From an uncultured bacterium (GTDB taxonomy: Bacteria; Krumholzibacteriota; Krumholzibacteriia; Krumholzibacteriales; Krumholzibacteriaceae), in the NCBI GenBank assembly GCA_963786935.1, contig CAWBAN010000004.1, positions 256,001 through 320,000 of the forward strand: a stretch of DNA of 64,000 nucleotides. Direction: 5' to 3'. Position 1 is the stretch's first letter, and the number at the start of each line of letters is the position of its first letter. The translations under genes and the position numbers were made by a program. Of this stretch, positions 14,261-35,361 are shown one piece after another. The notes under the pieces were generated by a model, which saw only the letters and a list, made by a program, of their open reading frames with translations, had not been told where the DNA came from and did not search any database.

Positions 14261-15319
14261 ATGCCCGGAAAGCCGGCTGCGCGTGTAGGTGATCTGACGG
14301 CGCACGGCGGGTCGATCGTCGGCCCCGGCGCCCCGACGGTCATGATCGGGGGCAAGCCCGCCTCGGTCGTGGGGGACATGCACGTCTGCCCCATGGTGAC
14401 CCCGGCGGTTCCTCCGGTTCCGCACGTCGGCGGGCCGGTTCTTCCTCCGGGCGTTCCGACGGTGCTCATGATGGGGAAGCCCGCCGTCTGCGTGGGGGAT
14501 ATGGCCACGTGCACCGGGCCTCCCGATACTATTCTGCCCCCCGGTTGCCCGACCGTGCTGATCGGGAGCGGCGGCGGAGGCGGCGGCGCGGGGAGCCCGG
14601 GGAGCGGCGGTGGGGGCGCCAAGGCGAAGGCGGCCGAATCGAAGGTCGAGGAAGGCCACTTCCTCGACGTCAAGTTCACCGACAAAGCCGGCAAGCCCAT
14701 CGCCGGCGTGGGCTATACCGTCAAGGGGCCGGGAGGCGCGGCGGGGGAAGGGGTCGTCACGGGGCAGGTCAAGAAATCGGGCGTCGAGCAGGGGAGCTAC
14801 GAGATCGCCCTGCGGGCGATAACCAAGGCGGAATGGTCGACTGAAAAAGCGATGGTCGGCGACAAGGTGAAATTGATCGCCGAGACGGCGGGCATTCCGG
14901 CGGGGGAGAAGGCCGAGCTCGAGATCTTCGTCAAGGACTTGAACGCAGCCGATCATCTTCTGGAGAAGCTCGACGCGCAGGTCAAGAGCGACAAGATCGA
15001 AGGAGAATGGGAGCTCGCCGTCGAAGGCCCGTTCCTTGCTGATCAGGACGGGAAGCGCGAGAAGGGCGCCTACGTCTCGCCGAAGTTCTACTTCGTCGTC
15101 AAGGCGGGGGGCCTGACCGCGCGCTCCAAGATCCTGAGCATCAAGGATTACTTCGAGATGGAGTTGATCGGCGACGACGGGAATCCCGTCGGCGGAGCGA
15201 AATATCGCGCCATCCTTCCGGATGGAACCATCAAAGAGGGAACGCTCGATTCCAAAGGGTACGCGAAGTTGGAGAAGGTGCCGCCCGGCAGGGTCGAGGT
15301 GACTTTCACGGTCGAGTAG
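14261..15319 (+). CDS. paar: PAAR spike-tip protein with C-terminal extension containing two transthyretin-like (TTR) domains
   Basis: KPAARVGDLTAHGG, KPASVVGD..VC, KPAVCVGD..TC; Gly linker; two D..GxPxxGxxY beta domains. Confidence 0.92.
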   Translation: MPGKPAARVGDLTAHGGSIVGPGAPTVMIGGKPASVVGDMHVCPMVTPAVPPVPHVGGPVLPPGVPTVLMMGKPAVCVGDMATCTGPPDTILPPGCPTVLIGSGGGGGGAGSPGSGGGGAKAKAAESKVEEGHFLDVKFTDKAGKPIAGVGYTVKGPGGAAGEGVVTGQVKKSGVEQGSYEIALRAITKAEWSTEKAMVGDKVKLIAETAGIPAGEKAELEIFVKDLNAADHLLEKLDAQVKSDKIEGEWELAVEGPFLADQDGKREKGAYVSPKFYFVVKAGGLTARSKILSIKDYFEMELIGDDGNPVGGAKYRAILPDGTIKEGTLDSKGYAKLEKVPPGRVEVTFTVE

Positions 15320-15350
15320 CGTTTCCCTGGAGCGATCACAAAGCTGAAAT

Positions 15351-18300
15351 ATGGCCCCTCCGGTAACACATACCAAGAACTCCTTCTCCCTCCACCGGAA
15401 AACGGTCAACATCATCGAGCTCGGCAAGGGACTCTTCAACAAGGAGAGCCCGATTCTCATGCCGGGGAGGCTGAAGAACGACGACGGACCCTCGGACGAG
15501 CTGTCCGACATGAACGCCGTTTCGGCGCACGCCGGCATCACGGCGCTCGCCGCCGCGTACAAACAGTTCGAATTCGATGCGAGAAAGCAGATCGTCATCG
15601 CGGGGCACGCCGCCGGGGAGAGCGGCGACGTCAAGAAGCACTTCGATCTCGCCGCGCTGCGGGCGCGGAACGTCTATCTGCTCCTGACGGGCCAGCGGGA
15701 GCAGTGGGCCGCCGGCTGCTATGCCGGCCAGAAGCTCGAGGACGTGAAGCGGATCCTCATGTATTTCGCCCTGAGGCGGCTCGGGTGGGACTGCCGCGAC
15801 AAGGGGGGAATCAACGCGAACTGGACCGACGACACGACCAAGGCCACGGAGAAATTCATCGCCGGCTACAACAAGGACGCGAAGCACGCGGTGAAGCTCG
15901 CCGCGGGGCTCGCCGCCGGCGCCGCGAAAGACAAGAAATGGTCGCCCGACCTCTGGAAGGCCGTCTTTACGCTGTACCAGGAGGATATCTGCACTTCGCT
16001 GAAGATCGCGCCCCCCGATCCCGCGAAGCTCCCGCTCCGGAAGCTCCGGTTCGCGATGCGCGGGAGGGAGTGCGTGGCGTGCGGGGAATCGTTCCCGCTC
16101 AAGGTCGACAAGAGCGGCTATCAGAAGGATAAGTACCGCCGCGTGGACATCATGTTCTGGAATCCGAAGGAAGTGCCGGGGGTGCGGAAGGGGTCGCGAC
16201 GCTTCGTCTGCCCGGCCGCGGGCGCGGCCGCCCACCAGTCGAAGGAATGCCCCATCTGGTATCAGAAGCACATCAAGGCCGTCTACCTCGATCCCGATAA
16301 AGAGCTCAAATTGATCGCATATCACCTCACGTTCACCTACTACGACAAGATCGCCGGCAAGGTCGACAAGGTGCCGGGCGGGCTCACGATCGAGGCCTAT
16401 CATTACGTGGGAGTCGGCGCGGCGAAGACGCTGACCCCGATCGACGCGATGCTCGACTACAGCGACGGGGTGTACACCCTCAAGGTCGAAGACGATTCGA
16501 CGCGCAAGAACATCTTCTTCCAGTTCAATACGCAGGACCCGGCGAAGCCCACCACGCTCATGTGGGTGTTCCGGAAGGACCAGAACGCCGAACCCGTCAT
16601 CGTCGAGAAGCAGACGGGGCCGGTCAAGTCGATGGGGACCGCGGAGCGGTTCAAGTACTACGATCTGCCGAAGCTCTGGTCGTCGGAGAACTACTGGACG
16701 CGCTATAAATCGGGAAACGACTACGAAGCGTTCCGGTACGATACCGTCATGAAGACCAAGAAGACGCTCAAGCCGTACGGGGGAAAGACCACGGCCGCGA
16801 CCGATCCGCTCTTTTTCTCGCTCAACGACATCGTGCTGATCAAGGCCGACGGATCGCAGATCGTCAAGGATAAGGACGCCGCGGACGTCGAAAAGGCGCT
16901 CTCGGCCGATTCGCGCGTCACGCTCCTCTATCTGGACAAGGACGACAAGTTCAAGGTCAAGATCTATGCGCCGCGGGCGGAAGCCCCCTACTTCAGCAAG
17001 CCCGATTTCACCGAGAACCTGATTTACAACTACCATCCCTCGACCCGCGCCATCATATTCTGCGGCGATTTCTACCACGCCTACGACAAGCGGACGGAAA
17101 AGACCGGCACGTTCGATTTCGCCAAGAAGCACGTGCTCGGGGCGCGGGCAGCGTTGATCAACGACGCGGACATAAGCGCCAAGGAGTCGTTCATCCTCAC
17201 CACGGACGCCAATCGCACGAACGCCTACTCGGGGGCCGGCTGCGGCAACTACGATCTGCATTTCATTTACCGCTGCGGTCTGTCGAAGGGAAAGAACGTG
17301 AGCGCCCTGATTCTCTACTGGTCCGGGAGCTTCAAGAAGGACGCCGCGAACGGCGGGACCGACGCCGACGCGCAGCTGTTCCTCGAGAAGGGCCTCCTGA
17401 ACGCGATGAACCGGAACAACGCCAAGGACTACACGCTCGCGAAGCACACCGGCACGCGCGACATGCTCATCAAGATGTTCATCTTCTACGAGGGGAAGCA
17501 CAAGGACCGCGGGGGCAAGCCGAAGTGCGTCTTGAAGGTCCGCGACAACAACGGGGGGAGCTCGATCGGGGCAGCCGCCGCGACCTATCGCAAGGGGGCT
17601 GCCGAGGTCGAGGCGAAGCACTTCCAGGCGGGGCCCACCGCGCCGGCGGATCCCCTGAACAGCGTGGCCGACTACGACGGATCGAAGACCAAGCGACTCG
17701 TCGGGGCCCACGAGTCGGGGCACGCCTCGGGTTGGGATGACGAATATCTCAAGTTCCTTGACGACAAGGACGCGCTGCCGAGCTTGCAGGAAATGCAGGG
17801 CTACTACAAGCATGCCGGGGGCGCCTATTACCACGGGGCGCCCTACAGCCTCGACAAGCTGACGATCATGAGCAGCAACCACGCGGTGCGGATGCGCCAT
17901 TTCTGGTACTACGTGAACTGGCTGAACGACATGGGCCAGGCGACCAAGCCGCTCCACAAGTTTCTCGACGGGACGAAATTCAAGATAACCTTCAAGGATC
18001 TGAACTACGAATTGATCACGAATCGGAAGCTGCACGAGTCGGCGCACCAGAAGGATTACTACAGCTTCACGGCCGATTCGAAGGCCGACATGATTCTCTA
18101 CAAGCTGGGCGAGGACGAGTTCGCCAAGACGATCACGAGCGGCCAGACATACACGGGGATTCTGATCGTCCGCACCAACCTCTCGGCCCGGTTCACGCCG
18201 GGCGCGTCGTGGACGGACGAGAACCAAGTCAACTGGCTCGGGGATCTGCACAAGCGTATCAACGTGATGCTGAACAAGAAGTACCGGCTCGCGTGCACCG

Positions 18301-18611
18301 GCGACGCCGACCATGCGTTCAAAAACGTGGCGCTGCACTTCATGCCGCACTACGAGATCCGGGGAGGCGCTGCCTCCATGGCCGGCATGCATTTCAAGCT
18401 GGAAGTGAAGGACGATACCGCCGGAACGTTTACGCCGGCGGGGACGACCATTACGGTGAGCAAGAACGTCGCCATGAAGAAGGTCATCAGGTACTTTTTC
18501 GGAAAGACGACCGGCGCCGACGATCTGGGGAAGGCCGACCTGACCAAGATAACGGATTGGATGGCCGACGCGTCGGTGACCGGCAAGGCATTCGCGTTCA
18601 GGGAGCTCTGA
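15351..18611 (+). CDS. Putative T6SS effector: degenerate OmpA_C-like plus PG-binding-like N-terminus and a C-terminal zinc metallopeptidase
   Basis: No signal peptide; directly after PAAR. IVIAGH..LAALRARNV...CGESFP...YRRVDIMF resembles OmpA_C. HESGHASGWDDEY near 17709, followed by a TIMS Met-turn. Confidence 0.65.
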   Translation: MAPPVTHTKNSFSLHRKTVNIIELGKGLFNKESPILMPGRLKNDDGPSDELSDMNAVSAHAGITALAAAYKQFEFDARKQIVIAGHAAGESGDVKKHFDLAALRARNVYLLLTGQREQWAAGCYAGQKLEDVKRILMYFALRRLGWDCRDKGGINANWTDDTTKATEKFIAGYNKDAKHAVKLAAGLAAGAAKDKKWSPDLWKAVFTLYQEDICTSLKIAPPDPAKLPLRKLRFAMRGRECVACGESFPLKVDKSGYQKDKYRRVDIMFWNPKEVPGVRKGSRRFVCPAAGAAAHQSKECPIWYQKHIKAVYLDPDKELKLIAYHLTFTYYDKIAGKVDKVPGGLTIEAYHYVGVGAAKTLTPIDAMLDYSDGVYTLKVEDDSTRKNIFFQFNTQDPAKPTTLMWVFRKDQNAEPVIVEKQTGPVKSMGTAERFKYYDLPKLWSSENYWTRYKSGNDYEAFRYDTVMKTKKTLKPYGGKTTAATDPLFFSLNDIVLIKADGSQIVKDKDAADVEKALSADSRVTLLYLDKDDKFKVKIYAPRAEAPYFSKPDFTENLIYNYHPSTRAIIFCGDFYHAYDKRTEKTGTFDFAKKHVLGARAALINDADISAKESFILTTDANRTNAYSGAGCGNYDLHFIYRCGLSKGKNVSALILYWSGSFKKDAANGGTDADAQLFLEKGLLNAMNRNNAKDYTLAKHTGTRDMLIKMFIFYEGKHKDRGGKPKCVLKVRDNNGGSSIGAAAATYRKGAAEVEAKHFQAGPTAPADPLNSVADYDGSKTKRLVGAHESGHASGWDDEYLKFLDDKDALPSLQEMQGYYKHAGGAYYHGAPYSLDKLTIMSSNHAVRMRHFWYYVNWLNDMGQATKPLHKFLDGTKFKITFKDLNYELITNRKLHESAHQKDYYSFTADSKADMILYKLGEDEFAKTITSGQTYTGILIVRTNLSARFTPGASWTDENQVNWLGDLHKRINVMLNKKYRLACTGDADHAFKNVALHFMPHYEIRGGAASMAGMHFKLEVKDDTAGTFTPAGTTITVSKNVAMKKVIRYFFGKTTGADDLGKADLTKITDWMADASVTGKAFAFREL

Positions 18612-18616
18612 GAACG

Positions 18617-19828
18617 ATGAATCGAATCGCCGCTCTCTTCGGACGCCGCCGCGCGGCGGCGCTGCTCTTCGTCATCTGTTTCGTTTGGGGGTGCGGCTCG
18701 AAGTCCGCCCCGGGAGGGAATGAACGCATGAACAACACTGCCGCCGGCGCGCTGTGCTCGACCTATTTCTCCGACTACGGGAGGAGCTCCTTCATTCCTG
18801 CGACGGCCTCCGTACAGGGAGAGCTCCTCTTTTCGGCGCCGCTCGCCTTCCCCGGGGGCGCGCCGCCCCAATTCGTGCTGCTGTGGGACGGCCGCGTCGT
18901 GGTCGAGTCCGAATCGATGTTCGCGGTGTTCGATTCGTCGGGGCGGAAGCAGTGGGAGCGGTCGAAGTACGTGAACTCGCCGATCGGCGTCGCGGACAGC
19001 GTGATCTACTGCGAGAACGCGAATTTCTTCCTCGACGGCGTCGACGCGACGAACCGGCGCGTCCTCGAGGACGGATCGCTCCCGCAGGTCATCGACGAGC
19101 ATTACCCCGTCTTCATGATCGCTCCGCAGAAGGACGATTTTCTGGCGGTCGTGCAGTTCGTCGGCGGGGAGGACGGCTCGCCCCCCTCGGCGAGATTCTA
19201 CCGGGCGAGATACGGGAGTCCGACCGATACGTGGGGACACACGCTCGACGGCGGCCAGATCCTGCCGCCGCTCTTCTCCACCGGGACAAACCGGCTCTAC
19301 GTCTTTATGAAGCGGGCGTTTGTCTTCGACGCCGTGACGGGGGCGGAGACCGCTCAGTTCGATTTCCCGATGGATGCGCCCGTCGCGGCGAGCGCGGATC
19401 AAAAGGGGAACGTCTTTTTCGCGGGAAGCGACAAGGGAAAAGGCACGCTCGCGGCGGCGGCGCAGGACGGCGCGGAGATCTGGCGCTTCGAAGATATGCT
19501 TCTCCGGGGAATCTCCCCGGGAGCGCAACCGCCGATTTTGGGGGCCGACGGCTCCGTGTATGTGATCGCGGGCGGCGCGATTCTCGCCGTGCGGGAGGGT
19601 AAGCTGGCGTGGAAACAGACGCCGCCGAAGGGAGGCTTCTCCTACGGCGCCGCGCTCGAAGGCGGCTCGTTCCTCGCGACGGCGGGGAGCGTCGTGTATC
19701 TCTTCGACGCGAAAGGGGAGCAGATGTCCGCGATCGATCTGGATGAAACTCTGGTGACCCCGCCGGTGGCGGACCGGGTGGGGATCGTGTATGTGGCGTC
19801 GTCCAAGACCCTCTTCGGGCTGAAATAG
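18617..19828 (+). CDS. Lipoprotein with PQQ-like beta-propeller; putative immunity protein
   Basis: Start MNRIAALF 5 nt after the effector stop; lipobox VWGC; repeated GxxxW propeller blades (DSSGRKQW, QDGAEIW, EGKLAW). Confidence 0.7.
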   Translation: MNRIAALFGRRRAAALLFVICFVWGCGSKSAPGGNERMNNTAAGALCSTYFSDYGRSSFIPATASVQGELLFSAPLAFPGGAPPQFVLLWDGRVVVESESMFAVFDSSGRKQWERSKYVNSPIGVADSVIYCENANFFLDGVDATNRRVLEDGSLPQVIDEHYPVFMIAPQKDDFLAVVQFVGGEDGSPPSARFYRARYGSPTDTWGHTLDGGQILPPLFSTGTNRLYVFMKRAFVFDAVTGAETAQFDFPMDAPVAASADQKGNVFFAGSDKGKGTLAAAAQDGAEIWRFEDMLLRGISPGAQPPILGADGSVYVIAGGAILAVREGKLAWKQTPPKGGFSYGAALEGGSFLATAGSVVYLFDAKGEQMSAIDLDETLVTPPVADRVGIVYVASSKTLFGLK

Positions 19829-19886: not shown

Positions 19887-20312
19887 ATGGCCAAAGCGGG
19901 ATTTCCATTCGAATTGAATCTTCCCGAAAGGTGGAAGGAGACGACCGTCTACACGTATCAGGGGCCCGACGACAGCGGCGTCCAGCACAACATCTCGCTC
20001 GTCGTCGACCGGGAAACGACGGCCCCCGATCTCAGGACGTACGCCGCCGAGCGCCGCGCCAATCTGCTCGCGACGCTGCAGGGGATCGATATTCTCAAAG
20101 AAGAAGAACGGACCATGGAGAGCGGGTATCCGGCTTACGAGCTCGTGTACAAATGGATTCCCGTCGAAGGCACCGTCGTGTATCAGAAGGTGGTGTTCAT
20201 GCTCGTCGGCCGTGTCGTCTGCACGTTCTCGGGCAACTTCTCCAAAAAGACGATCAAGACCATCGGCGTGGAGTTTGACCGGATAGCGTCTTCGTTCGCC
20301 CTTATCGATTAA
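19887..20312 (+). CDS. DcrB/DUF1795 (EagR-like) T6SS effector adaptor
   Basis: FELNLPERWKETTVYTY...NISLVVDRE...YELVYKW...VVYQKVV fits the DUF1795/PsbP-like pattern; T6SS context. Confidence 0.75.
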   Translation: MAKAGFPFELNLPERWKETTVYTYQGPDDSGVQHNISLVVDRETTAPDLRTYAAERRANLLATLQGIDILKEEERTMESGYPAYELVYKWIPVEGTVVYQKVVFMLVGRVVCTFSGNFSKKTIKTIGVEFDRIASSFALID

Positions 20313-20420: not shown

Positions 20421-22940
20421 ATGGATATCTCCAGCTATTCTCATGATTCCCGGACGGTCATCAAAGCCGCCCAGGAGATCGCGGCCGCCTTCAAGCATGC
20501 CGAGATCGAGGTCGAACACCTCCTCATGGCGGTCGTGCGCCACGAGGCCCCCGAGGTCGAGTCGATCCTCAACCAGCTCGGCAAGCCCGCCTCCTTCGTC
20601 GAGTCGATTCTCGAGATCTACCTGAAGGATCAGCCCGCGAAATCGACCGGGCGGGAGAAGGCCCCCGTTTCTCCTTCGGTGCAGACCGTGCTGAACAACG
20701 CCCTCGACGAAAAGGAGAAGCTCTACGCCCCCCTCGTCGAGCCCGAGCATATCCTCATCGCGATCTTCGATCCGCGCTCGGCGCTGGCCGGCTACGTCCG
20801 CGACAAGGTCGAGTTCAAGAAGGAAGATATTTATCGCGCCATCGCCGAGATCAAGGCGGTCGAGGAGATCGCCGCCCCCTCGAAAGGGGGAAAACGCGCC
20901 GAAGGTGCCGCGGAGGCCTCGGCCGAGGTCGCGGGGACGCTCAAGTACACCAGCGACATGACGAACCGGGCGGCGGCGGGAGAGTTCGATCCGATGATCG
21001 GGCGCGCCGACGAGCTCCAGCAGACCATCCAGATCCTCCTCAGGCGCCGGAAGAACTCGCCCATCCTCGTCGGGGGCGCCGGCGTCGGAAAATCGGCGAT
21101 CGTCGAGGGATTCGCGCAGGCCGTGATCGGCAAACGGGTGCCCAAGACGCTCCAGGACGTGAAGGTCCTCGAGGTCGATATGGGCTCGCTCGTCGCGGGC
21201 GCGAAATACAAAGGGGAGTTCGAGGAGCGTTTCAAGGCGCTCATCGGGGAGGTCGTGCGGAGCGCGGGGAAGGTCATCCTCTTCATCGACGAGATACACA
21301 CGATCTGCGGCTCGGGCTCGGGCGGCGGGATGGACGCGGCGAATCTCCTCAAGCCGGCCCTCGCCCGCGGGCAGCTCAGGCTCATCGGGGCGACCACCGA
21401 GGAGGAGTACACCAAGTATCTCGAGAAGGACAAGGCGCTCGTCCGGCGCTTCGAGAAGGTCAGGGTGGATCAGCCCCACTTCGACGAGGCCGTCCGGATC
21501 GTGAAAGGCGTGGAAAGCAAATACGCGGGGCATCACAAGGTCACGTTCACTCCCGAGGCGCTCGTGGCCTCCGTGAAGCTCGCGCAGCGGTATCTTTCCG
21601 AGCGGAACCTGCCCGATATCGCGCTCGATATCATCGACGAGGCCGCCTCGGAGTTCGCCGTGAAGAAGGAGCTCGCCGGCGAAAAGGTCGGCTCTCTCGG
21701 GCCGCTTTTCGCGAAGGTCGAGGAGCTCGCCGCCGGCAAAAAGGCGGAAGGCCTCGCCGAGGCCTACGACGCGCTCATCAAGGACGTGGACGCGCTGCAG
21801 AAATACTGGGGGCACCGGCTCGACCGCGAGCGGGAGACGAGCCTCCCCTTCGATCGGATCAAGACGGAGAATCTCCCCGGCATCGTGGCGGAAAAGCGGA
21901 AGCTCTTCGCCGATCTCAAGAAGGTCGTCGAGGCGCTCGAGCCGAAGATATTCGAAAGCGATATCGGCGCGGTTATCGCCCGCCGGACCGGCATTCCCGT
22001 GTCGAAGATGATGACGGCGGAAAAGGACAGGCTCATCAACATGGAGGACTACCTGTCGAAAAAGATCATCGGCCAGCCGAACGCCATCAAAGCCGTCTGC
22101 AACGCCATCAGAAAGTCGCGTGCCGGCTTGAAATTGCCGTATCGCCCGGTCGGCTCGTTCCTGTTCCTCGGGCCCACGGGCACGGGCAAGACGTATCTTC
22201 CGAAGCTGCTCGCGGAGTTCCTCTTCGACGACAAGAACGCCATGGTCCGGATGGATATGTCCGAGTTCATGGAGCCCCATTCGGTGGCGAAGATGATCGG
22301 GGCGCCCCCCGGCTACGTGGGATACGAGGCGGGTGGGCTCCTCACCGAGGCGGTGCGCAAGAAGCCGTTCTCCATCGTCCTCCTCGACGAGGTGGAGAAG
22401 GCGCATCCGGACGTTTTCAACATTCTCCTCCAGCTCCTCGACGACGGCCGGCTCACCGACGGGCAGGGGCGCACGGTGGATTTTTCGAACACAATTGTTG
22501 TATTGACATCGAATTATGCCGCTGATAAGATACTCGCCGCGGACCGTGAGGGCAGGGAACCGGACATGGACGAGATCCGGGGATTCCTGTTCGGCAAGTT
22601 CAGACCCGAGCTTCTCAACCGGCTGAGCGAGATCATCGTGTTCCGGCCGTTCTCGCAGGAGCAGGTGGAGAATATCGCGGGGTTGGAGTTCAAGGGGCTC
22701 TGCGCTCTTCTGGAGGACCAGAACATCAAGGCGACGCTGTCGGACGAGGCGCGCAAGAAGCTGGCGAGGGAAGGGTACACGGTCGAGCTGGGGGCGCGGC
22801 CCATTCAGAGGATTATCGAGAAACAGATCATCAACAAGCTCTCGGTGGAAATCATCACCGGCGGCGTCAAACCGGGGGATGAGGTCCGGATCGACGTCAA
22901 GGACGACGATTATTCCTTTATCGTCGTCGAACGTAAATAG
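20421..22940 (+). CDS. tssH: ClpV/TssH AAA+ sheath-recycling ATPase (ClpB-like)
   Basis: Clp_N repeats (EHLL/EHIL); two AAA modules (GGAGVGKS, LFIDEIH; GPTGTGKT, LLDEVEKAHPDV); directly upstream of tssB. Confidence 0.9.
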   Translation: MDISSYSHDSRTVIKAAQEIAAAFKHAEIEVEHLLMAVVRHEAPEVESILNQLGKPASFVESILEIYLKDQPAKSTGREKAPVSPSVQTVLNNALDEKEKLYAPLVEPEHILIAIFDPRSALAGYVRDKVEFKKEDIYRAIAEIKAVEEIAAPSKGGKRAEGAAEASAEVAGTLKYTSDMTNRAAAGEFDPMIGRADELQQTIQILLRRRKNSPILVGGAGVGKSAIVEGFAQAVIGKRVPKTLQDVKVLEVDMGSLVAGAKYKGEFEERFKALIGEVVRSAGKVILFIDEIHTICGSGSGGGMDAANLLKPALARGQLRLIGATTEEEYTKYLEKDKALVRRFEKVRVDQPHFDEAVRIVKGVESKYAGHHKVTFTPEALVASVKLAQRYLSERNLPDIALDIIDEAASEFAVKKELAGEKVGSLGPLFAKVEELAAGKKAEGLAEAYDALIKDVDALQKYWGHRLDRERETSLPFDRIKTENLPGIVAEKRKLFADLKKVVEALEPKIFESDIGAVIARRTGIPVSKMMTAEKDRLINMEDYLSKKIIGQPNAIKAVCNAIRKSRAGLKLPYRPVGSFLFLGPTGTGKTYLPKLLAEFLFDDKNAMVRMDMSEFMEPHSVAKMIGAPPGYVGYEAGGLLTEAVRKKPFSIVLLDEVEKAHPDVFNILLQLLDDGRLTDGQGRTVDFSNTIVVLTSNYAADKILAADREGREPDMDEIRGFLFGKFRPELLNRLSEIIVFRPFSQEQVENIAGLEFKGLCALLEDQNIKATLSDEARKKLAREGYTVELGARPIQRIIEKQIINKLSVEIITGGVKPGDEVRIDVKDDDYSFIVVERK

Positions 22941-22966
22941 AGGCATCATTTAACAAGGAGGCTTTG

Positions 22967-24843: not shown

Positions 24844-24890
24844 ACGGACGTTTGGCGGCGCCCCGGGGCGCCCGAAAGGAGAAGCGGAAT

Positions 24891-27587: not shown

Positions 27588-29255
27588 ATGGACGGCGAAA
27601 AGTTCAAGACGGCCGAGGAAATCTTCCGGGACATGCACCGCGAGCTGCGCTCCTGGAACGCCGAGATTCCCGAATCCGCCGAGCGGCTGGATCCGATTCT
27701 GCGGATCATGCTGCAGCTGTACGCGGGCCAGCTCGCCTCGATCGACCGGAAGATAACGGACACCTGGACGCACGCGTCCAACGCCCTGATCCGGTCGCTT
27801 TATCCCGAGAGCATGCGCTGGCCGGTACCCGCGTTTACGGTGATTCAGGCGGAGCCCTCCGATCCGGTCATTCACGTGGACCCCCAGTGCCGATTCTTCT
27901 ACAAGGAAGAGCGGGAAGGGGGACGGACCTTTTTCTTCTCGACGCTTCGAACCGAGAAGCTCCTGAGCGCGAAGCTGCGCAATCTCTACTACGTCGCGGG
28001 CGACGAAATCCGCGACATTTCCCCCGCTTCCGGGGAAGGGACGCGGGTGGCCGACCGGATAAGATCCGCCGTGCCCGCCGGCGGCGCGGCCGCCGTCTAC
28101 CTGGCGATCGAGCACGGCGGCCCGGCGGAGGATTTCGAGAACGCGCTGCTCTTCCTGCGGGGGAGCGCCGAGGCGCTCAAGCAGCTGCGGTGGTCGCGGT
28201 GGCTCCCGTGCGTCGACGGCCGGTTCTCCGAGGAAAGCGGATTCTGCCCGGGGCTCGCCGGCGCCATCGACGAGATGCTCGCGACCGGCGGCGCGGCCCT
28301 CGACTGGGGAGGCCTCAGGAGGAGCAGCGACATATTCAGGCCCCTCGAGAACAACCTCGTGATGATGCCGCGCGGATTCGTCACGCCGTGGCGGCGCGGG
28401 ACGCCCGACGCCGCGTTCATGAAGGCCCTCGGCGAGGCGGGCGCGGCGCTCCCCGAGTCGCCGGAAACGCTGTTCTGGATCCGCGCGCAGCTGCCGTCGC
28501 GCGGGGACCGGGCCGCGTTCCAGGCGCCGTTCCGGGCGGATTTCGACTGCTTCATCGCCGTCAACCGGCACGAGCAGACGCTGTTCAAGCACACGGGAGG
28601 CAACCGGCTCATCGAGATCGAGATCCCCGAGAATCCGGACAACGTTCTCGAGATCATCTCGGTCATGGATTCGAGCGGAAAAACCTACATTCCGCAGCAC
28701 GAAGCGCTCACGTCGGACGAGAGCAGGTTCTACAACATGATCGAGCAGGGGGGGCGCCTCTCGCTCTGGTTCGATTTCTCGTCGACCATCGAGCTCCCGC
28801 CCGACGCGATCACGGTCAACTACTCGGTGACGGCGGGGACGCTCGCCAACGGCATCTCCGCCGGCAAGATCACCGAGCTGTACCAGAGTCATCCCGGCGT
28901 CGCCTCGCTGCGGAACATCGTCCCCGTCGCCGGCGCCGTGCCGGCGAAGAACGAGCGGCAGATCGTCGCCGAGGTCTCGGCGCGCCTGCGCGGGCGCGAT
29001 CGCGCGATGTCGTTCGACCAGCTGATCGGCTGGGTGCGGACGTTCGACGGGCGGATCGCCGAGGCGAGCTGCGAAAAGGGCGTCATGAAGACGGACGGCG
29101 GCGTCAGGAAATGCGTGGTGGTGCGGGCGTTTGTCAAGGCGAAGGAATTCTATTCGGACGACGAGATCGAGCTCCTGCGCGTCCGTCTCGAATCGTTTCT
29201 CAAGGCGCGCGCGTCGATCAACAGCCAGTTCAAGGTGGAGATACTGAAATCGTGA
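27588..29255 (+). CDS. tssF: TssF baseplate wedge subunit
   Basis: N-terminal LDPILRIMLQ...LYPE...PVPAFTVIQAEP; C-terminal LRGRDRA; synteny E-F-G-K. Confidence 0.8.
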   Translation: MDGEKFKTAEEIFRDMHRELRSWNAEIPESAERLDPILRIMLQLYAGQLASIDRKITDTWTHASNALIRSLYPESMRWPVPAFTVIQAEPSDPVIHVDPQCRFFYKEEREGGRTFFFSTLRTEKLLSAKLRNLYYVAGDEIRDISPASGEGTRVADRIRSAVPAGGAAAVYLAIEHGGPAEDFENALLFLRGSAEALKQLRWSRWLPCVDGRFSEESGFCPGLAGAIDEMLATGGAALDWGGLRRSSDIFRPLENNLVMMPRGFVTPWRRGTPDAAFMKALGEAGAALPESPETLFWIRAQLPSRGDRAAFQAPFRADFDCFIAVNRHEQTLFKHTGGNRLIEIEIPENPDNVLEIISVMDSSGKTYIPQHEALTSDESRFYNMIEQGGRLSLWFDFSSTIELPPDAITVNYSVTAGTLANGISAGKITELYQSHPGVASLRNIVPVAGAVPAKNERQIVAEVSARLRGRDRAMSFDQLIGWVRTFDGRIAEASCEKGVMKTDGGVRKCVVVRAFVKAKEFYSDDEIELLRVRLESFLKARASINSQFKVEILKS

Positions 29256-30156
29256 TGAGCGGCGCGGAACGGATAATGCCCGATTTCACCGGCCGTCGGT
29301 ACCGGTTCCACTACCTGACGGCCATCAACCTCCTCGACGGAATGGGCGTGCCCCTCGTCGATATCCGCCTGCGGGCGGAAGGGGAGTACGAGAATTACCG
29401 CGGGGAGATCCGCTCGCAGGATCCCCGCCCGGAACGCCGATCCCGCCGGGAACGATCGTCACGCTCCACGTGGGATGCTTCAGCGCGGTCGATTTCTTCC
29501 CGTACCAGTTCTTTTACGGGCTCCAGGGGATCCGCGAGGGGGGCGACGCGTGGGAGACGGACGCGCGGTCGATCCTGGCGCCGTTCGACGCCGCGACGAT
29601 CCGCTACGCCGCCGCCATGCGGATGCAGGCGCTCCGCTACGATTTCGGCGTCGCGGACGCCGGCCACCGCGGGCGCTTCATGGAGCTGTTCGAATACCGG
29701 CCGGGGGAGGGGATCCGGGACGCCCGGCAGACGGCGTATCTCGCGGCGATCCTGCCGTCGCTCCACCTGTGGGGCGGGAATCCCGAGGCGGTGACGGTTG
29801 TATTGAAGAGGCTCTTCGGATATGATGTGCGGCTGAAGGAAAACGCGAAGACCGAGACGCCGATCCCCGACGAGCTCCGGTACCGGCTCGGATCGAAGGG
29901 GGCGCGGCTCGGATTCGATACGGTGATCGGCGCCTCGTTCGAGGAGCGCGACAGCGGATATGTCGTGGAGTTCGTCGGCGTGCCTCCCGGGAAGATCCGC
30001 GATCTGCTGCCCGGGGGACGCACGCGACGCGGCGCGGAGGCGTTCCTCGATTACTGCATGCCGGGCGATCTGGACCGCTCGATCGCCGTCACGGTCGGGA
30101 AGCGGGAGGCGCGGGAGAGCGCGCAACGGTATCTCGGGCTTTCGACGTACCTGTGA
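29255..30156 (+). pseudogene. tssG: TssG baseplate subunit with an N-terminal PASTA-like domain, split by a 1-nt frameshift near 29423-29430 (real or sequencing error)
   Basis: The frame from ATG 29255 reads ...GEIRSQDP, and the sequence continues in the 29470 frame as PGTPIPPGTIVTLHVG...DFFPYQFF...ILPSLHLWGGN...RLGFDTVIG...FLDYCMP. One extra base in GATCCCCGCCC joins the two frames. Confidence 0.75.
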
Positions 30157-30199: not shown

Positions 30200-31651
30200 A
30201 TGGATGGATTCAAGCTGCAATCGGTGAACTGGCGCGACGGAATGCTCCTGAGCATGGGGCACCTGCGCGCCCAGGAAAGCTACCTCGAAGAGCTCGTCCG
30301 CTGGCATGCCTTCGACGAAGGGGACCGGTACGGCCTCGTGCGGAAGGATCCGGCGCAGCCGCCGCTGCGGCTGAGCGCGACGGTGAGCGGGAACAGACTC
30401 CGGGTCGAGGTGAGCCGCTGCCAGGCGCTCCTCCCCTGCGGGATGGCGGTGGAGTTCGGCGGATCGACAAGCGAGGGTGGGGTGCTCAAGGCCGAAATGG
30501 ATGCTCCGGCGACCCGCGTCCCCGTGTTCCTCGGCGTCAATCCCGGGGAGAAGCGGCAGGTGGGGAACCCCGATCCGTCGGAAGAGGTGCCCCGGATTCC
30601 GTACGAGATACCGGCGTTCCGGATCGCCCTCGGCGAGCCGCCGAACCTTCCCGAGTCGATGTATCTCCCGATCGCCGTGCTCGCCGTGAGCGGTTCCGAT
30701 GTGGCCCCGGCGGCCGACTACTTCCCCCCCTGCATGAGCGTCAACGCCGACGAGCGGCTCTCCTCGATGGCGATCGATCACCGGAACCGCCTCGAGAACC
30801 TCCTCAAGCTCTCCATCAACGCCTATATCGCCGCCTCCTCGGACAAGGGGATCGAAGGCGCGTCGACGAAGCTCCAGAGCGCCTTCCGTGAGACGTCGCA
30901 CGATCTCGTGTATCATATGGCCGCGCATCTCGACGATTTCGTCGTCGGACGCGGCGCACCGCACCCGGCCGTGTACATGCTGCAGTTCAAGAAGCTGTTC
31001 CGCGTCGTCTCGGCGCTCCTTCACCTGCATCCGGGGCTCAAGGATTTCCTGAACGAGAAATTCTTCACGAAGGAGGGGGGCGCCGATATCGGCTCCTGGC
31101 TCTCGGCGATCGATTCCTTCCTCCTCTCCGCGTACGATCACCGGGACATCGCCGCTCAGATGCGCGCCGTCGATCGTATCCTCGGAACGATGCGCTCGCT
31201 CATGGCCTTCCTCTCGAAGACGAGTTCCGATCAGCTCGGCGAGCAGGCGGTGGCCACCGAGACGATCATGTACCGCGGGAAGACCTACCGGAACAGCGCG
31301 CTCGGCGCGAGCAAGCTCGAGGAGGTGGGCGAGCTGAACTTCCTCGTCATGAAGCTCGCCGAGCCGGGAGCGGTGAAGGACGCGGTGACCCTGATCAACA
31401 AAGATCTCTTCTCGGACGGCCAGTGGCGGAACATGCAGGTCCGCCTCGGCGTGAACGAGGCGCGCGGGCTCGGCGAGACCGACCCCGTCGAGGTCGACGT
31501 CACGAGCTACAGCAACAAGGTCGTGCTCCATCCGATGGACATGATGTCGTCGTCGTCGGTCAAGCAGGTGACCCTCATCTTCCGCGGCCTCCCCGATTCG
31601 AAGAAGCTGGCCGCGCTCGGCAAGACGGATCTCATTCTTTATATTTCGTGA
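30200..31651 (+). CDS. tssK: TssK baseplate-to-membrane-complex connector
   Basis: VNWRDGMLLSMGHL, RYGL, CQALLPCG, GNPDPSEEVPRIPY and YFPPCMSV. Confidence 0.85.
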   Translation: MDGFKLQSVNWRDGMLLSMGHLRAQESYLEELVRWHAFDEGDRYGLVRKDPAQPPLRLSATVSGNRLRVEVSRCQALLPCGMAVEFGGSTSEGGVLKAEMDAPATRVPVFLGVNPGEKRQVGNPDPSEEVPRIPYEIPAFRIALGEPPNLPESMYLPIAVLAVSGSDVAPAADYFPPCMSVNADERLSSMAIDHRNRLENLLKLSINAYIAASSDKGIEGASTKLQSAFRETSHDLVYHMAAHLDDFVVGRGAPHPAVYMLQFKKLFRVVSALLHLHPGLKDFLNEKFFTKEGGADIGSWLSAIDSFLLSAYDHRDIAAQMRAVDRILGTMRSLMAFLSKTSSDQLGEQAVATETIMYRGKTYRNSALGASKLEEVGELNFLVMKLAEPGAVKDAVTLINKDLFSDGQWRNMQVRLGVNEARGLGETDPVEVDVTSYSNKVVLHPMDMMSSSSVKQVTLIFRGLPDSKKLAALGKTDLILYIS

Positions 31652-31666
31652 TGGAGGGTGTGATCA

Positions 31667-32596
31667 ATGGGTGAGAGCATAACGTCATATATCGAGGATC
31701 TGTTCAGGTACCTCAATGCCTACGAGAGCGATTACGGATCCTTCCAGGCCGATGGATTCTTCCAGACGTACAACGGCATCGGCGCCGTGTTCCAGGCGCT
31801 CCGGGAGCAGCGCGACAAGGCGGTCGAGGTCGACCGCGTCTTCCTCGAGAAGATCAAGCAGCGGCCGCTCACGAGCTCCGATCTGCGGCAGCTGACCATC
31901 CAGGTCATCGTCTCGTTCTTCGAATCGGTCGCCGACACGGACGGCCGCTCGGGCAGCTCCTATATCTACTGCCGCGAGCTCAGGACCGTTCGGCAGGACG
32001 TCCCGTACTTCGAGACGGTTCTCGTGCCGCTCCTCGCCCGCGAGGGGAGCCTGAACGGCAATTTCGAGCTGAATCGTTTCTTCCTGCAGGAGATCGGGCG
32101 CTACATCAGGAAGTTCAGCAGGAGCTTCAGCGCCGACGTCAATTTCGAGGACTTCAAGGGAATGCCGGTGCATCAGAAGCTGCTGACGCTCTCGCTCCGG
32201 CGCTCCGAGCTCGGCGAAGACATCATCAACGACCGGGATTCGCTCGAGTTTCATATGCGCAACGTGGGCGTTTTCGAGAAGCTGCGGCAGGAGAGCCCGC
32301 TCGCGGAGCGCTATATCAAGGAGTGGAAGTACCTTGCCCGCGGGCCCGGTTTCTGGGACCGCGTGGGGCAGTTTTTCGGCCTCGTCGGAAGCAAACTCAA
32401 GGGCTCGTCGAGCTCCAACTACGTGAGCCTGTCGCTCCGGCAGCGTTATTCCGCGTATCTGTTCTACGGGCTGCTGATCGTCGTGTTCGTGTTTCTCGCC
32501 GTGTTCATCCCGCTGCAATGGAACAAGTACACGGAGCGGAGACTCGAGCGGTTCAAGGCCCATGTCGAAGAGACCGAACGGGCCATGGGCTCATAG
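31667..32596 (+). CDS. Hypothetical inner-membrane protein with TssL-like topology (helical cytoplasmic domain, single C-terminal TM)
   Basis: TM YLFYGLLIVVFVFLAVFIPLQW about 25 aa from the C-terminus; sits right after tssK, where tssL lies in T6SS-i. Confidence 0.6.
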   Translation: MGESITSYIEDLFRYLNAYESDYGSFQADGFFQTYNGIGAVFQALREQRDKAVEVDRVFLEKIKQRPLTSSDLRQLTIQVIVSFFESVADTDGRSGSSYIYCRELRTVRQDVPYFETVLVPLLAREGSLNGNFELNRFFLQEIGRYIRKFSRSFSADVNFEDFKGMPVHQKLLTLSLRRSELGEDIINDRDSLEFHMRNVGVFEKLRQESPLAERYIKEWKYLARGPGFWDRVGQFFGLVGSKLKGSSSSNYVSLSLRQRYSAYLFYGLLIVVFVFLAVFIPLQWNKYTERRLERFKAHVEETERAMGS

Positions 32597-32611
32597 GGGG
32601 ACGGGAGGGTC

Positions 32612-34822
32612 ATGAAGATAGCCAAGATATTCAAGCTCGGGCAGAAGGGCGCCAAGCGGGCCAAGAAGATGAAGGGAGGCGCCGCCCCGGCCGCCGCCTG
32701 GCCGGAGGGGACGAGGGTCGGCGTCTTCGGGCACGAGAACTCGGGGAAGACGGTGTTCTTCACCGCGCTCTACACGCAGAGCAAGACCACCGCGAATTTC
32801 CACGTGTCGGTGCGCGACAACGCGACGGCCAACGAGTTCTTCAGGAACGACATGGCCATCAAGGGGGTCGACGTCGACAGCGGCGGCACGGGAACGATCG
32901 CGGCCAAATCCGTTCCGAAGCGGTTCCCCGACCGGACCGTGAAGGATCTCGTGGTCCAGTTCACGGCCATTCTCGACGGGAGCGTCAAGATCCCGGTGGT
33001 CACCTACGATTACAACGGCCGGGCCGCTTCGATCTCCGATCGCTCGGACGAGGCGGAGAAGATCCGGTCCTTCATGGCGGACGCCGACGGGCTGCTCTTC
33101 TTCTTCGATCCGAAGGTCCTCGGCGCGGATCCCGAGGTCCAGGCGCGGGTCTCGTCGTTCGTCAACGTGCTCGAGCTTATCGTGTCGCTCAAATCGCGTC
33201 TCCCCATCCCCGTGGGGCTCGTGATCACCAAGGCCGATTCGCTTCCCGGCTTCACCGGCGAGGACAAGACGATCCTGATCCGGTCGAAGGACGAGCAGGT
33301 GATCGCCGACGACTACGAGACGTTCCTCGAGAAGGTGCTCGGCTTCGACAGCCTCGCCGACGACCGGGAGTGGGCCGCGTCGGTTCGGACCATCCTCGTG
33401 AAGCTCAGGGAGTTCATCCGCGTCGTCGTGGGGCGGACGCTCGACTTCCAGATCTTCTTCGTGTCGAGCACGGGGAACAAGCCGGAGAAAATCGGCGCCG
33501 AGGTCGGCCGGTCGCTCTACGCGCCGCCCGACAAGGTCAATCCGTGCGGCGTCACGGAGCCGTTCTACTGGATGCTCAAGTCGATCGTCCGGAGCCGGCG
33601 CCTGACCGCGTTCCGGAGGGTCGCGGGATTCGTCGTCGCGATCGCGGCGATCTGGATCGCGCTGTACTCGCTCCCGTTCATGATTCACTTCGGCGGCCTC
33701 CTGCGGTCCCCGGCGCGGGTGGAGAGCAAGGCGCTGAAGGAGGCCGGCGGCAATCACCGGCTCCTGTCGCCGGCGCAGAACGACGACATCTTCAACGCGT
33801 ACCGGCGGTACGGCGGCGCCTGGCTCGTCAAGCGGATGTTCCCCGAGTACCAGGTGCAGGCCCAGCACATGAAGGATATCTACGGCGGCATCGGCACGCC
33901 GACGGCCGGCGGGAGGCTGGACGCCATTCTCATCCAGCTCGCGGGTGTGATCGCCGACGAGAAATCGCGCCCCGTCTGGGACCGCGGCGACAAGAAGGTG
34001 AAGCTCGACGACGCCACCAAGCGGCTGCTCGACGAGCTCAAGGAGATGCACTCCGGCGACGAGAACGAGCCGTCGTTCAAGCGCTCCGAGCGGGCGCTGT
34101 TCCTGTGGGGTCTTTTCGAGCAGCACCTGCAGAGCTCGCAGGATCCGGCGATCCTGAACTCGATCTGGGAGCAGGTCGCCGCGAACGCGAAGAATCCGGA
34201 TTACAACGACGCGGAAGCGCGGTACGGGGAGGCGCTCCAGCGGCTCGCCAACAAGGCGGCTTCGGAGGAAGCTCCTTCCCTGCAGGAAACCAATACGATC
34301 CTCGATGCGTACGCGGAGCTCAAGGGGCGGGTCAACGCGAAGGACGCCGATCCCGCCTTCGTTCTCGGCGAGGCGGCGGACGAGCTTCGGAATATCGCGT
34401 CCAAGCTGACGAGGGGCGTCCACGCCGAGCAGCTCTCCGCGATCTCGCAGTTCGTCGCCGCCGTGGAGGCGCTGAAGAAGGAACAGCAGTACGTCTGCAT
34501 CGTGAAGAACATCGCCGGGCTCGATCACGTTCACATCGAAGTGACGAAACCGGGCGGAAGCCCCTCCTGGTCGGAGCAGACGCAGTGCTTCAAGGGGGAC
34601 GAAGTCGATCTGCGGTGGAAGCCGGGGGACGAAATCTACATCGCGTACGACGAGGAAAAGCACACGTGCAAATGGGGAAATCAGCCGAGCGACATGCAGG
34701 TGTTCGACGACGAATACGCGCTGTACCAGCTCGACGGAAAGGTGAGCTTCTCCAATATCGGAAAGACGGTGACGCTGGGCTTCAAGGGCGGTCTGCGGGA
34801 GAAGCTGCCGAAGCTGAAATGA
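32612..34822 (+). CDS. Membrane-anchored P-loop GTPase-like protein with TssM/IcmF-like architecture
   Basis: G1 GHENSGKT, G3 DYNG, G4 TKAD, G5-like VSSTG; single TM VAGFVVAIAAIWIALYSLPFMI; periplasmic helical region, then a beta-rich C-terminus. Confidence 0.68.
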   Translation: MKIAKIFKLGQKGAKRAKKMKGGAAPAAAWPEGTRVGVFGHENSGKTVFFTALYTQSKTTANFHVSVRDNATANEFFRNDMAIKGVDVDSGGTGTIAAKSVPKRFPDRTVKDLVVQFTAILDGSVKIPVVTYDYNGRAASISDRSDEAEKIRSFMADADGLLFFFDPKVLGADPEVQARVSSFVNVLELIVSLKSRLPIPVGLVITKADSLPGFTGEDKTILIRSKDEQVIADDYETFLEKVLGFDSLADDREWAASVRTILVKLREFIRVVVGRTLDFQIFFVSSTGNKPEKIGAEVGRSLYAPPDKVNPCGVTEPFYWMLKSIVRSRRLTAFRRVAGFVVAIAAIWIALYSLPFMIHFGGLLRSPARVESKALKEAGGNHRLLSPAQNDDIFNAYRRYGGAWLVKRMFPEYQVQAQHMKDIYGGIGTPTAGGRLDAILIQLAGVIADEKSRPVWDRGDKKVKLDDATKRLLDELKEMHSGDENEPSFKRSERALFLWGLFEQHLQSSQDPAILNSIWEQVAANAKNPDYNDAEARYGEALQRLANKAASEEAPSLQETNTILDAYAELKGRVNAKDADPAFVLGEAADELRNIASKLTRGVHAEQLSAISQFVAAVEALKKEQQYVCIVKNIAGLDHVHIEVTKPGGSPSWSEQTQCFKGDEVDLRWKPGDEIYIAYDEEKHTCKWGNQPSDMQVFDDEYALYQLDGKVSFSNIGKTVTLGFKGGLREKLPKLK

Positions 34823-34851
34823 ACGAACGGATCGGAGAAAGGAACGATGGT

Positions 34852-35361
34852 ATGAAAAGAGCGACGCTGTCCGTGCTCGCCGTCCTCGTCCTGGCCGCGC
34901 TGCCCGCGATCGCCTTCGCGGCGAAGGTGGCCGTGCCCGAGGGCACGCCGGTCAAGGTCATGTTCGACGCCGGGAAGAAGATCTCCTCGGGCGAGCGCAA
35001 GGCGGGAGACACGCTGTCGATTCGTCTGGTTGAAGACGTCAAGATCGGCGGAAAGACGATCGTCGGGGCCGGCGCGAAGGGAATCGCGAGGGTCAAGGAA
35101 GTGACGCCCTCTACGAAGCCCGGGAAGCCGGGCACCATAGAAGTCTCGTTCATTTCGCTGACGGCGGGCGGCGAGTTCCGGTCGAAGGACGGAAGCGACA
35201 TCAAGCTCGCCGGAGCGGCGAAGGACGTAGGCGGCTCGCACAAGATCCTTTCCTGGCTCTTCATCTTCGGATTGTTCATCAAGGGGGGGCAGGGGGATAT
35301 CGATGCGGCGCGGATCTACCAGGCTACGGTCGGAGAAACGATCGTTCTCGAGAGCAGATAG
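34852..35361 (+). CDS. Exported protein with VirB10/TrbI-like beta domain and hydrophobic insert
   Basis: Signal peptide MKRATLSVLAVLVLAALPAIAFA; VPEGTPVKV..ISS...KAGD...LVEDVKIGGKTIVGAGA...G.IEVSFISL..DGSDIKL; hydrophobic ILSWLFIFGLFI. Confidence 0.6.
   Translation: MKRATLSVLAVLVLAALPAIAFAAKVAVPEGTPVKVMFDAGKKISSGERKAGDTLSIRLVEDVKIGGKTIVGAGAKGIARVKEVTPSTKPGKPGTIEVSFISLTAGGEFRSKDGSDIKLAGAAKDVGGSHKILSWLFIFGLFIKGGQGDIDAARIYQATVGETIVLESR

Follow-up and report, generated by a model that had tools for sequence, protein, structure and literature searches.

We analysed a window of 64,000 nucleotides from contig CAWBAN010000004.1 (C4) of an uncultured Krumholzibacteriota bacterium. A single series of plus-strand genes at 14261-35361 encodes a type VI secretion system (T6SS) and ends in three genes of no assigned family, here called g1, g2 and g3, which stand where canonical T6SS-i loci of the same phylum carry tssL-tssM (Table 1). 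The host genome (3.26 Mb in 5 contigs, 96.5% complete) contains this one T6SS locus, with its core genes in single copy, and the GC content of the window is high (0.59-0.70). Core genes were called from Pfam and NCBIfam scans of the window proteins. Judged by these families, the locus is a T6SS in the generic sense, with a TssB/TssC sheath, Hcp, VgrG, PAAR, TssE/F/G/K and ClpV. All the genes listed in the original prediction were present; its immunity gene had been placed on the wrong open reading frame (ORF), tssG is split, and the system extends past 35361 into a convergent operon of five minus-strand genes (d1-d5; 35410-42037) that accompanies the run in 36 of the 46 testable loci.

Table 1. 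Genes of the T6SS run and of the convergent operon (aa, amino acids; TM, transmembrane segment)
Gene	Position	Strand	Product	Family match or other evidence
PAAR	14261..15319	+	spike tip with C-terminal extension, 352 aa	PF05488 3.1e-20
effector	15351..18611	+	putative effector, 1086 aa, HESGH (HExxH) motif	no Pfam/NCBIfam family
lipoprotein	18617..19828	+	403 aa, PQQ-like beta-propeller, putative immunity	PQQ_2 9.8e-9, lipobox VWGC
DcrB/DUF1795	19887..20312	+	putative effector adaptor	PF08786 1.4e-9
clpV/tssH	20421..22940	+	AAA+ sheath recycler	AAA_2 8.6e-64 plus Clp_N
tssB	22964..23407	+	small sheath subunit	PF05591 35 bits
tssC	23425..24843	+	large sheath subunit, Bacteroidota-type	PF17541 233 bits, without PF05943
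tssD/hcp	24852..25295	+	tube	PF17642 2.2e-20, 73 bits
vgrG	25410..27203	+	spike	Phage_base_V 1.5e-25, Phage_GPD 9.3e-17
tssE	27212..27586	+	gp25-like	PF04965 2e-14
tssF	27588..29255	+	TssF	TIGR03359 2.7e-4 (weak), conserved position
tssG	29255..30156	+	TssG, frameshifted	PF06996 2.7e-14 on C-terminal part
tssK	30200..31651	+	baseplate-to-membrane adaptor	TIGR03353 1.8e-10
g1	31667..32596	+	309 aa, candidate TssL counterpart	no family
g2	32612..34822	+	736 aa membrane GTPase, candidate TssM counterpart	no assigned family
g3	34852..35361 (alternative start 34819)	+	169 aa, secreted, beta-rich	no family
d1	35410..36951	-	lipoprotein, Laminin_G_3, variable member	PF13385 1.6e-9; in 41/80 loci
d2	36964..38085	-	373-aa secreted protein, putative beta-barrel	signal peptide, C-terminal ...RVSY; no Pfam family
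d3	38075..39421	-	lipoprotein (LAGC), TPR repeats, CsgG-like	CsgG PF03783 9.7e-5
d4	39449..40498	-	secreted, CsgG-like + TPR	PF03783 1.2e-15
d5	40547..42037	-	Ser/Thr kinase, TM, PEGA, putative PpkA-like regulator	Pkinase 8.2e-50, PEGA 3.6e-4

Passages of an August 2026 review (PMC13584744) divide T6SSs into four clades, found in Pseudomonadota (i), Francisella (ii), Bacteroidota (iii) and Amoebophilus (iv), all of them confined to Pseudomonadota and Bacteroidota. TssC and TssD of the window belong to Pfam families built on Bacteroidota proteins (PF17541 and PF17642), and TssC had no match to PF05943 (VipB) in the Pfam scan. Searching 72,556 plasmids with TssC (tblastn) yielded 22 records, among which no T6SS-i TssC was found. 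The 10 best, all from Bacteroidota, aligned over 71-97% of the query with 27-30% identity; the others were weak matches to sheaths of phages or extracellular contractile injection systems (eCIS), Streptomyces and Deinococcus among them. A corresponding plasmid search with ClpV, tried as a route to T6SS-i loci, was abandoned since it returned ClpB genes at about 41% identity; ClpV itself scores 861 bits on the ClpB model versus 684 bits on the TssH model (TIGR03345), both below cutoff.

We compared the core proteins with reference loci from Bacteroides finegoldii, Hymenobacter, Tenacibaculum, Bernardetia, Runella and Capnocytophaga. Identities to the Bacteroidota orthologues were 38.6% for ClpV (Hymenobacter T6SS-iii), 32% for TssB, 30% for TssC, 31% for TssD, 26.5% for VgrG, 36% for TssE, 31% for TssF (Hymenobacter, 113 aa only) and 23.5% for TssK, which was matched to a Hymenobacter T6SS-iii protein (locus L082, 12013-13188; E 2e-13). 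The values for TssF and TssK back two calls that are weak by profile. None of the core proteins, TssK included, matched T6SS-i stretches of the same phylum at E <= 0.001, in a comparison that covered tssK, tssL, tssM and tssC rather than whole clusters.

We also inferred a quick IQ-TREE phylogeny from 64 TssC sequences, namely the window protein, 52 of the 57 ORFs from related loci (those of 455-500 aa were kept and 5 were dropped), 6 Bacteroidota and 5 T6SS-i sequences. T6SS-i was split from the variant and T6SS-iii sequences with a Shimodaira-Hasegawa-like approximate likelihood ratio (SH-aLRT) of 100, and a branch 5.7 changes per site long connected the Bacteroidota clade (SH-aLRT 100) to the variant group at its base. 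The variant sequences were 64-91% identical to one another, and the tree is compatible with a single, tight variant clade. Because of the Pfam families, the Bacteroidota matches and the TssC tree, the tail and baseplate are, on sequence grounds, T6SS-iii-like and of a lineage of their own, which bears out the proposal in the original prediction of a T6SS-iii-type tail. That prediction also spoke of an evolutionary intermediate, for which the tree gave no backing: TssC falls with T6SS-iii rather than T6SS-i, but its branch is very long.

TssC also matches Phage_sheath_1C at 1.3e-4, a member of the phage-tail-sheath superfamily. Together with the weak matches to Streptomyces and Deinococcus sheaths, this would suit an eCIS or a T6SS-iv-like injection system that needs no membrane complex, in which case the three terminal genes would be unrelated neighbours. 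However, ClpV, TssK, TssE/F/G, VgrG, PAAR and the DUF1795 adaptor are all present, and the three genes hold their place in nearly all loci across phyla (counts below). eCIS are not known to have ClpV and TssK. We consider this explanation very improbable.

Position of g1-g3 and the convergent operon

In a scan of one genome per species, a relative of g2 was encoded in 119 genomes, from which 80 loci were kept. The hosts, as given in the record titles, were Krumholzibacteriota (closest, 57-89% identity), Zixibacteria, Latescibacterota, Ignavibacteriales/Ignavibacteriaceae, Calditrichota and GN15. Neighbours were counted only in loci with enough flank. g1 was located immediately upstream of g2 in 74/75 loci, tssK upstream of g1 in 67/68 and g3 downstream of g2 in 68/68, so that the conservation of tssK-g1-g2-g3 beside T6SS cores, suggested earlier as a check, was confirmed. 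The complete order tssC-D-vgrG-E-F-G-K-g1-g2 was kept in 55 of 56 loci, and the gene run is thus not a chance arrangement. The sole exception, a Zixibacteria locus (L017; CP070766.1), has g2-g3 without a preceding g1 and tssK, with 400 N and unrelated genes upstream, and its d4 is located elsewhere in the genome. The core operon conserves no other membrane-bound product.

Among 208 species genomes of the phylum of the window, the g2 family was present in 22 (families f1, f2, f3, f5 and f6) and canonical TssM in 21 (f7 and f5), and the two shared no genome. We fetched 8 T6SS-i stretches of the same phylum, in which TssK, DotU and TssM domains were confirmed by Pfam. These are laid out as tssK-tssL-tssM, followed in 2 of the 8 (L092 and L095) by a convergent d1-d5 set. 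The window is laid out as tssK-g1-g2-g3, likewise followed by d1-d5. Since the tssK and d-operon flanks are the same as in the canonical loci, g1-g3 fill the tssL-tssM slot, that is, the slot of the inner-membrane anchor.

The known anchor proteins were searched for in the whole genome. There was no match to PF06761, PF09850, PF12790 or PF06812, with an E. coli control that was positive each time, nor to the T6SS-iii anchor families PF17555, PF17561 and PF17643, for which controls on two Bacteroidota records recovered TssN in 2/2 and TssO in 1/2, TssR being without a positive control. Searches by tblastn with TssN, TssO, a second TssO-like protein, the PKD protein, TssR and DUF5457 from Bacteroides finegoldii, with Hymenobacter TssN, and with TssL and TssM from the same phylum returned nothing from the genome at E <= 1e-3. 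The three proteins themselves had no match to TssN/O/R, DotU, IcmF or SciN profiles at E up to 10. The T6SS-i traits found to be absent are the TssJ/L/M families and TssA (ImpA_N, PF06812) in the genome, and the VipB type in the TssC of the window.

These results agree with the earlier claim that TssN, TssP, TssJ and TssA are missing here, and extend it to TssJ/L/M/A and TssN/O/P/Q/R throughout the genome (TssP and TssQ by genome tblastn only). Three observations had been named in advance as counting against the original prediction, namely hits of the three genes to profiles of the known anchors, a complete tssNOPQR set elsewhere in the genome, and a lack of conservation beside homologous T6SS cores. 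All three were looked for and none was seen.

Among loci with at least 8 kb downstream, genes d2-d4 were convergent to the core in 36 of 46, and 34 of these 36 also contained the d5 kinase. In 5 of the 10 genomes lacking an adjacent operon we looked for d4, and found an orthologue elsewhere in 4. Orthologues of d4 are also located beside tssM in same-phylum genomes with canonical TssM, and the whole d5-d1 set is convergent to tssM in the two T6SS-i loci mentioned above. Because the whole set also flanks canonical tssM, the d operon is an accessory module common to both kinds of T6SS in the phylum and not the anchor, and we rejected it, with its CsgG-like, TPR and barrel proteins, as the outer-membrane half of a new anchor. 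d2 looks like a beta-barrel from its sequence. The role of the d operon is most likely in sensing and regulation, much like that of the PpkA/TagQRST pathway. One further T6SS-i locus of the phylum (L097) encodes a PEGA Ser/Thr kinase, a PP2C phosphatase and an FHA protein.

Sequence and predicted structure of g1-g3

Of 7,999 candidates scored against g2, 252 were relatives at E <= 0.001; nearly all of these are 721-752 aa long, and they are named at source only as 'GTPase domain-containing' or 'hypothetical'. In an alignment of the window protein with 35 of the 120 relatives listed, the G motifs were invariant: the P-loop (G40, N43, K46), D133/G136 and K207/D209 (TKAD). The AlphaFold2 (AF2) model, with a predicted local distance difference test score (pLDDT) of 81.6, contains a Ras-like G domain at 31-332, a helical domain at 365-621 and a beta-sandwich at 625-724. 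Between the G and helical domains, one long helix contains the sole hydrophobic segment (331-364, by hydropathy), in which a single TM is predicted at about 337-359, with basic residues on the N-terminal side of the segment. An Atlas search with residues 365-736 gave no usable match.

In the Pfam scan, g2 reached 27.4 bits on DO-GTPase2 (PF19993), against a cutoff of 27, and 16 bits on IcmF-related_N (0.0078), against a cutoff of 25; no IcmF-related, IcmF_helical or IcmF_C domain was assigned. Alignment of g2 to 5 TssM proteins with hhalign gave a single match (probability 20.8%, E 0.0011), of g2 172-290 on TssM 236-384, which centres on a shared G4 motif, TK.D..GF, while the periplasmic halves showed no alignment. 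Profiles built from the g1, g2 and g3 alignments found nothing below E 0.03 among the PDB sequences. Membership of g2 in TssM/IcmF is therefore not seen at the sequence level, and its earlier description as TssM-like is backed by the architecture and one weak alignment around the G4 motif.

A divergent version of the module is present in two genomes of family f6 (L114, G029:C1:194000-213999; L115, G020:C3:1-8706), where a TssK-like protein, a g1-like protein of 340 aa and a g2-like protein of about 815 aa are followed by a GAP1-N2 protein of about 1010 aa. Both g2-like proteins score above the cutoffs of DO-GTPase1 and DO-GTPase2, and by sequence this ties the G domain of g2 to the DO-GTPases, which passages of Kaur et al. 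2020 (PMC7159879) describe as membrane-proximal switches, without a link to T6SS or IcmF. Genes similar to d3 and d2 and a TssG-like gene with a PASTA domain are located near the module in L114.

These observations would also fit a module in which g1-g3 act as a GTPase switch that regulates the assembly or firing of the T6SS, with the anchor encoded elsewhere, for instance by the envelope proteins d2-d4 with their CsgG-like domains. In support of it are the match of g2 to DO-GTPase2 at threshold, the relatives above cutoff that precede a GAP1-N2 protein, and the switch function described for the family. However, the d operon cannot be a replacement anchor because it also lies beside canonical TssL/TssM and is missing at the core in 10/46 loci. 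Moreover, the core operon has no other conserved membrane-bound product that could serve, the Pfam scan found no GAP1 protein in the window, and g1-g3 lie in the exact tssL-tssM slot. We judge a purely regulatory role improbable.

The AF2 model of g1 is all-helical (pLDDT 87.8) and the domain is predicted to be cytoplasmic, with one C-terminal TM at 260-288 by hydropathy. A helical cytoplasmic domain on a single C-terminal anchor is the topology of TssL, as predicted originally. Foldseek found no match for g1 at E <= 0.001, and in a second structure search the helical repeats of TFIID and the proteasome came top, with no TssL among the matches listed. A profile of the window g1 and 39 of the 77 g1 ORFs matched only 42 proteins among 1.84 billion representatives (36 of them at 1e-10), about 300-340 aa long or fragments, and 17 g1 relatives that were scanned had no DotU match at E up to 1. 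With hhalign, only the TM aligned to 2 TssL proteins (probability 0.5%), and the probability against 3 TssN proteins was 0.2%. The resemblance of g1 to TssL is thus one of topology; by sequence it falls in neither the TssL/DotU nor the TssN family.

It could still be argued that g1 and g2 are extremely diverged forms of TssL and TssM. The locus would then be a hybrid of a T6SS-iii-like tail and a slimmed T6SS-i-type inner-membrane complex, from which the TM hairpin at the N-terminus and half of the periplasmic part are gone, and not the carrier of a new anchor. The order tssK-tssL-tssM corresponds to tssK-g1-g2 with the same flanking operon, the topologies agree, and the hhalign match of g2 to TssM and the IcmF-related_N score, given above, point in the same direction. 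TssM proteins consist of a cytoplasmic NTPase, a membrane region and periplasmic helical and beta domains, in an order that is also that of the Pfam domains in TssM of this phylum. However, TssM has three TMs where g2 has one, and measures about 1130-1230 aa in this phylum as against 736 aa. No Pfam, NCBIfam or PDB-profile match connects g1 or g2 with the DotU or IcmF families, the alignment of g1 with TssL is confined to the TM, the scanned g1 relatives are without DotU even at a permissive threshold, and the g1 profile is restricted to its 42 proteins. We regard this origin as unlikely, though the most serious of the alternatives.

g3 is a beta-rich protein with a signal peptide and a short hydrophobic stretch that is conserved. 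The window g3 was aligned with 37 of the 69 g3 ORFs, and there was no lipobox, nor any Cys after the signal peptide, in the 38 sequences. These 38 members matched no family, PF12790 (SciN) and PF03743 (TrbI) being absent at E up to 10, and membership of g3 in TssJ or VirB10 is accordingly not seen at the sequence level. The original prediction had called g3 VirB10-like, and a motif does look alike by eye. We rejected this identity because there was no PF03743 match and the hhalign probability against 4 TrbI/VirB10 proteins was 0.2%; the sole hint was the nearest named Atlas cluster, TrbI at 0.79, which is a lead only.

A complex of g2 365-736 with mature g3 was predicted at an ipSAE of 0.54 (runs of 0.53, 0.63 and 0.54), with 0.00 for the best control, a pLDDT of the partners of at least 78 and a contact agreement of at least 97%. 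For calibration, the mark set for a complex was reached by 116/157 solved complexes and 2/215 mismatches, and a score of 0.60 or under was found for only 18 of the 157 solved complexes and for both mismatches.

Cargo genes, tssG and outer neighbours

The genes upstream of clpV resemble a cargo module. The 403-aa lipoprotein gene was called from an analysis of GC content at third codon positions (GC3) and its lipobox; the Arg-rich ORF of 282 aa at 18754-19602, previously taken as the immunity gene, is a wrong-frame artefact of high GC content that overlaps it. We fetched stretches from 4 relatives. Homologues of PAAR were located near clpV in 3 of them, with 40-54% identity, the fourth stretch being only 5.7 kb long. 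The set of PAAR, 1086-aa protein, lipoprotein and DcrB was whole near clpV in 2/4 and partial in 1/4, on the strand opposite clpV in 2 stretches. The 1086-aa protein was 30-39% identical among relatives and the lipoprotein 28-36%. Because the set diverges fast (28-54% identity) as compared with ClpV and TssB (76-91%), its pattern fits an effector-immunity-adaptor set, with the 1086-aa protein as the putative effector.

A 1-base frameshift near 29422-29434, in a C/G-rich run, splits tssG, so that the first approximately 58 codons, which start at 29255, are in another frame; intact homologues have about 300 aa. In the public runs X1, X2 and X5, which bridge the site (X3 is without coverage there), all 4 bridging contigs carry one extra base at 29422-29425: two in X1 (depth 10.1 and 3.6 of 21.5), one in X2 (2.3/2.3) and one in X5 (4.43/4.43). 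With the longer sequence in all four contigs of the three runs, the break is peculiar to this assembly or strain; X1 may be the sample from which the genome came. In one metatranscriptome run, 0.05 of the sampled words were present, a figure that says nothing on expression.

Directly upstream of PAAR, 11328-14245 encodes a 619-aa Ser/Thr kinase with an N-terminal zinc ribbon and then a 341-aa protein with SH3 and outer-membrane protein (OMP) beta-barrel domains; both genes recur beside the locus in a genome of the same genus, with 55-58% identity. Beyond the d operon, 42584-49061 contains a 757-aa protein with a type IX secretion system (T9SS) C-terminal sorting domain (Por_Secre_tail, 4.9e-6), and two paralogous minus-strand lipoproteins of about 660 aa and no family (44945-46915 and 47076-49061).

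A candidate membrane complex and its relation to known systems

We consider it fairly probable that the locus encodes a complete contractile T6SS of a distinct lineage, with an undescribed anchor that is made from the three genes after tssK and is neither TssJLM nor TssNQOPR. The anchor, centred on a membrane-bound GTPase, would most likely represent a third kind of membrane complex for the T6SS. g1 would be fixed to the inner membrane through its C-terminal helix, with its helical cytoplasmic domain beside the G domain of g2, and the two could form the hub at which TssK docks the baseplate. g2 would span the inner membrane once and project its helical and beta-sandwich domains into the periplasm, where g3 may bind them to form the periplasmic part of the channel. 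Because all the G motifs of g2 are invariant, we propose that binding or hydrolysis of GTP by g2 gates assembly or firing. The lipoproteins, CsgG-like/TPR and barrel-like proteins and PEGA Ser/Thr kinase of the d operon would contribute sensing and regulation as accessories.

Several observations weigh against this interpretation. The anchor is known here from genes and models, and no solved or predicted assembly displays a channel. No outer-membrane component was identified, g3 is without a lipobox, and a crossing of the outer membrane would be conjecture. The score of the predicted g2-g3 complex is flagged as weak support. The G domain of g2 is at the DO-GTPase2 threshold, and in a divergent relative of g2 the next gene encodes a GAP1-N2 protein, which would suit a switch with a regulatory role no less than a structural part. 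When the whole of g2 was used in fold searches (Foldseek pdb, VIA wide and VIA second look), the matches were small GTPases; no TssM chain was listed in these searches, the lists of which were taken up by the GTPase domain and say nothing either way. Finally, with tssG frameshifted in the assembly, function in this very strain is not assured. What stands of the original prediction is a T6SS-iii-type tail combined with a candidate complex that is neither TssNOPQR nor TssJLM; the VirB10 likeness, the trans-envelope span and the intermediate status are not borne out.

A more far-reaching version of the hypothesis is that this is a third kind of anchor on a tail that is sister to T6SS-iii, that the T6SS-i-like layout of tssK, an L-like and an M-like gene has been kept, and that a true GTP switch gates firing. 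We offer it tentatively and think it more doubtful than not. If it were true, the last ancestor common to this lineage and T6SS-iii would have carried an L/M-type anchor, for which Bacteroidota later substituted TssNQOPR. In passages of Bongiovanni et al. 2024 (PMC10781749), the T6SS-iii membrane complex is given as TssNQOPR and three scenarios for the origin of the anchor are set out, the choice being left open because only two anchors are known. A third kind of anchor would make these scenarios testable by structure comparison and phylogeny, and the same-phylum genomes with canonical T6SS-i offer a direct comparison. With these findings the range of the T6SS comes to include Krumholzibacteriota, Zixibacteria, Latescibacterota and related uncultured phyla that live in sediments and wetlands, and there are signs that a contractile weapon may be controlled through GTP. 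Literature on T6SS subtypes, the host phyla and DO-GTPases, covered mostly at the level of abstracts and with subscription journals outside the scope, yielded no description, and so far as this search shows the system is most likely undescribed in print.

Compared with T6SS-i, the window has the same succession of tssK, a tail-anchored protein and a protein with NTPase, TM and periplasmic parts, followed by the same d1-d5 flank. The periplasmic part of g2 is helical and then beta-sandwich, in the order of IcmF_helical and IcmF_C, and a weak match to TssM surrounds the G4 motif. In contrast to TssM, g2 is short, has one TM and begins with a Ras/Rag-like G domain at the DO-GTPase2 threshold. There is no DotU, IcmF-related, IcmF_C or SciN match, g3 is not a lipoprotein, and the tail differs from the VipA/VipB (PF05943) type.

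The likeness to T6SS-iii of Bacteroidota includes the TssC and TssD families and identities of 23-39% for ClpV, TssB/C/D/E/F/K and VgrG, as well as the lack of TssA and TssJLM. The candidate anchor genes follow tssG-tssK, as tssN does in T6SS-iii according to passages of Bongiovanni et al. 2024. However, the identity of TssC to its Bacteroidota counterparts is no more than 27-30%, and the protein falls in a separate, tight clade with a long branch. None of TssN, TssO, TssP, TssQ and TssR was found in the host genome, and the cytoplasmic hub would consist of a tail-anchored helical protein and a GTPase instead of the 5-TM TssN. The hosts differ too, being Krumholzibacteriota, Zixibacteria, Latescibacterota and genomes labelled as Ignavibacteria. 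As in the DO-GTPase/GAP1 conflict systems, the G domain of g2 reaches the PF19993 cutoff and the two divergent relatives stand beside GAP1-N2. Unlike in those systems, the window is without GAP1, an FNIII component and a second GTPase, and the g2 gene is located inside a T6SS operon, beside tssK.

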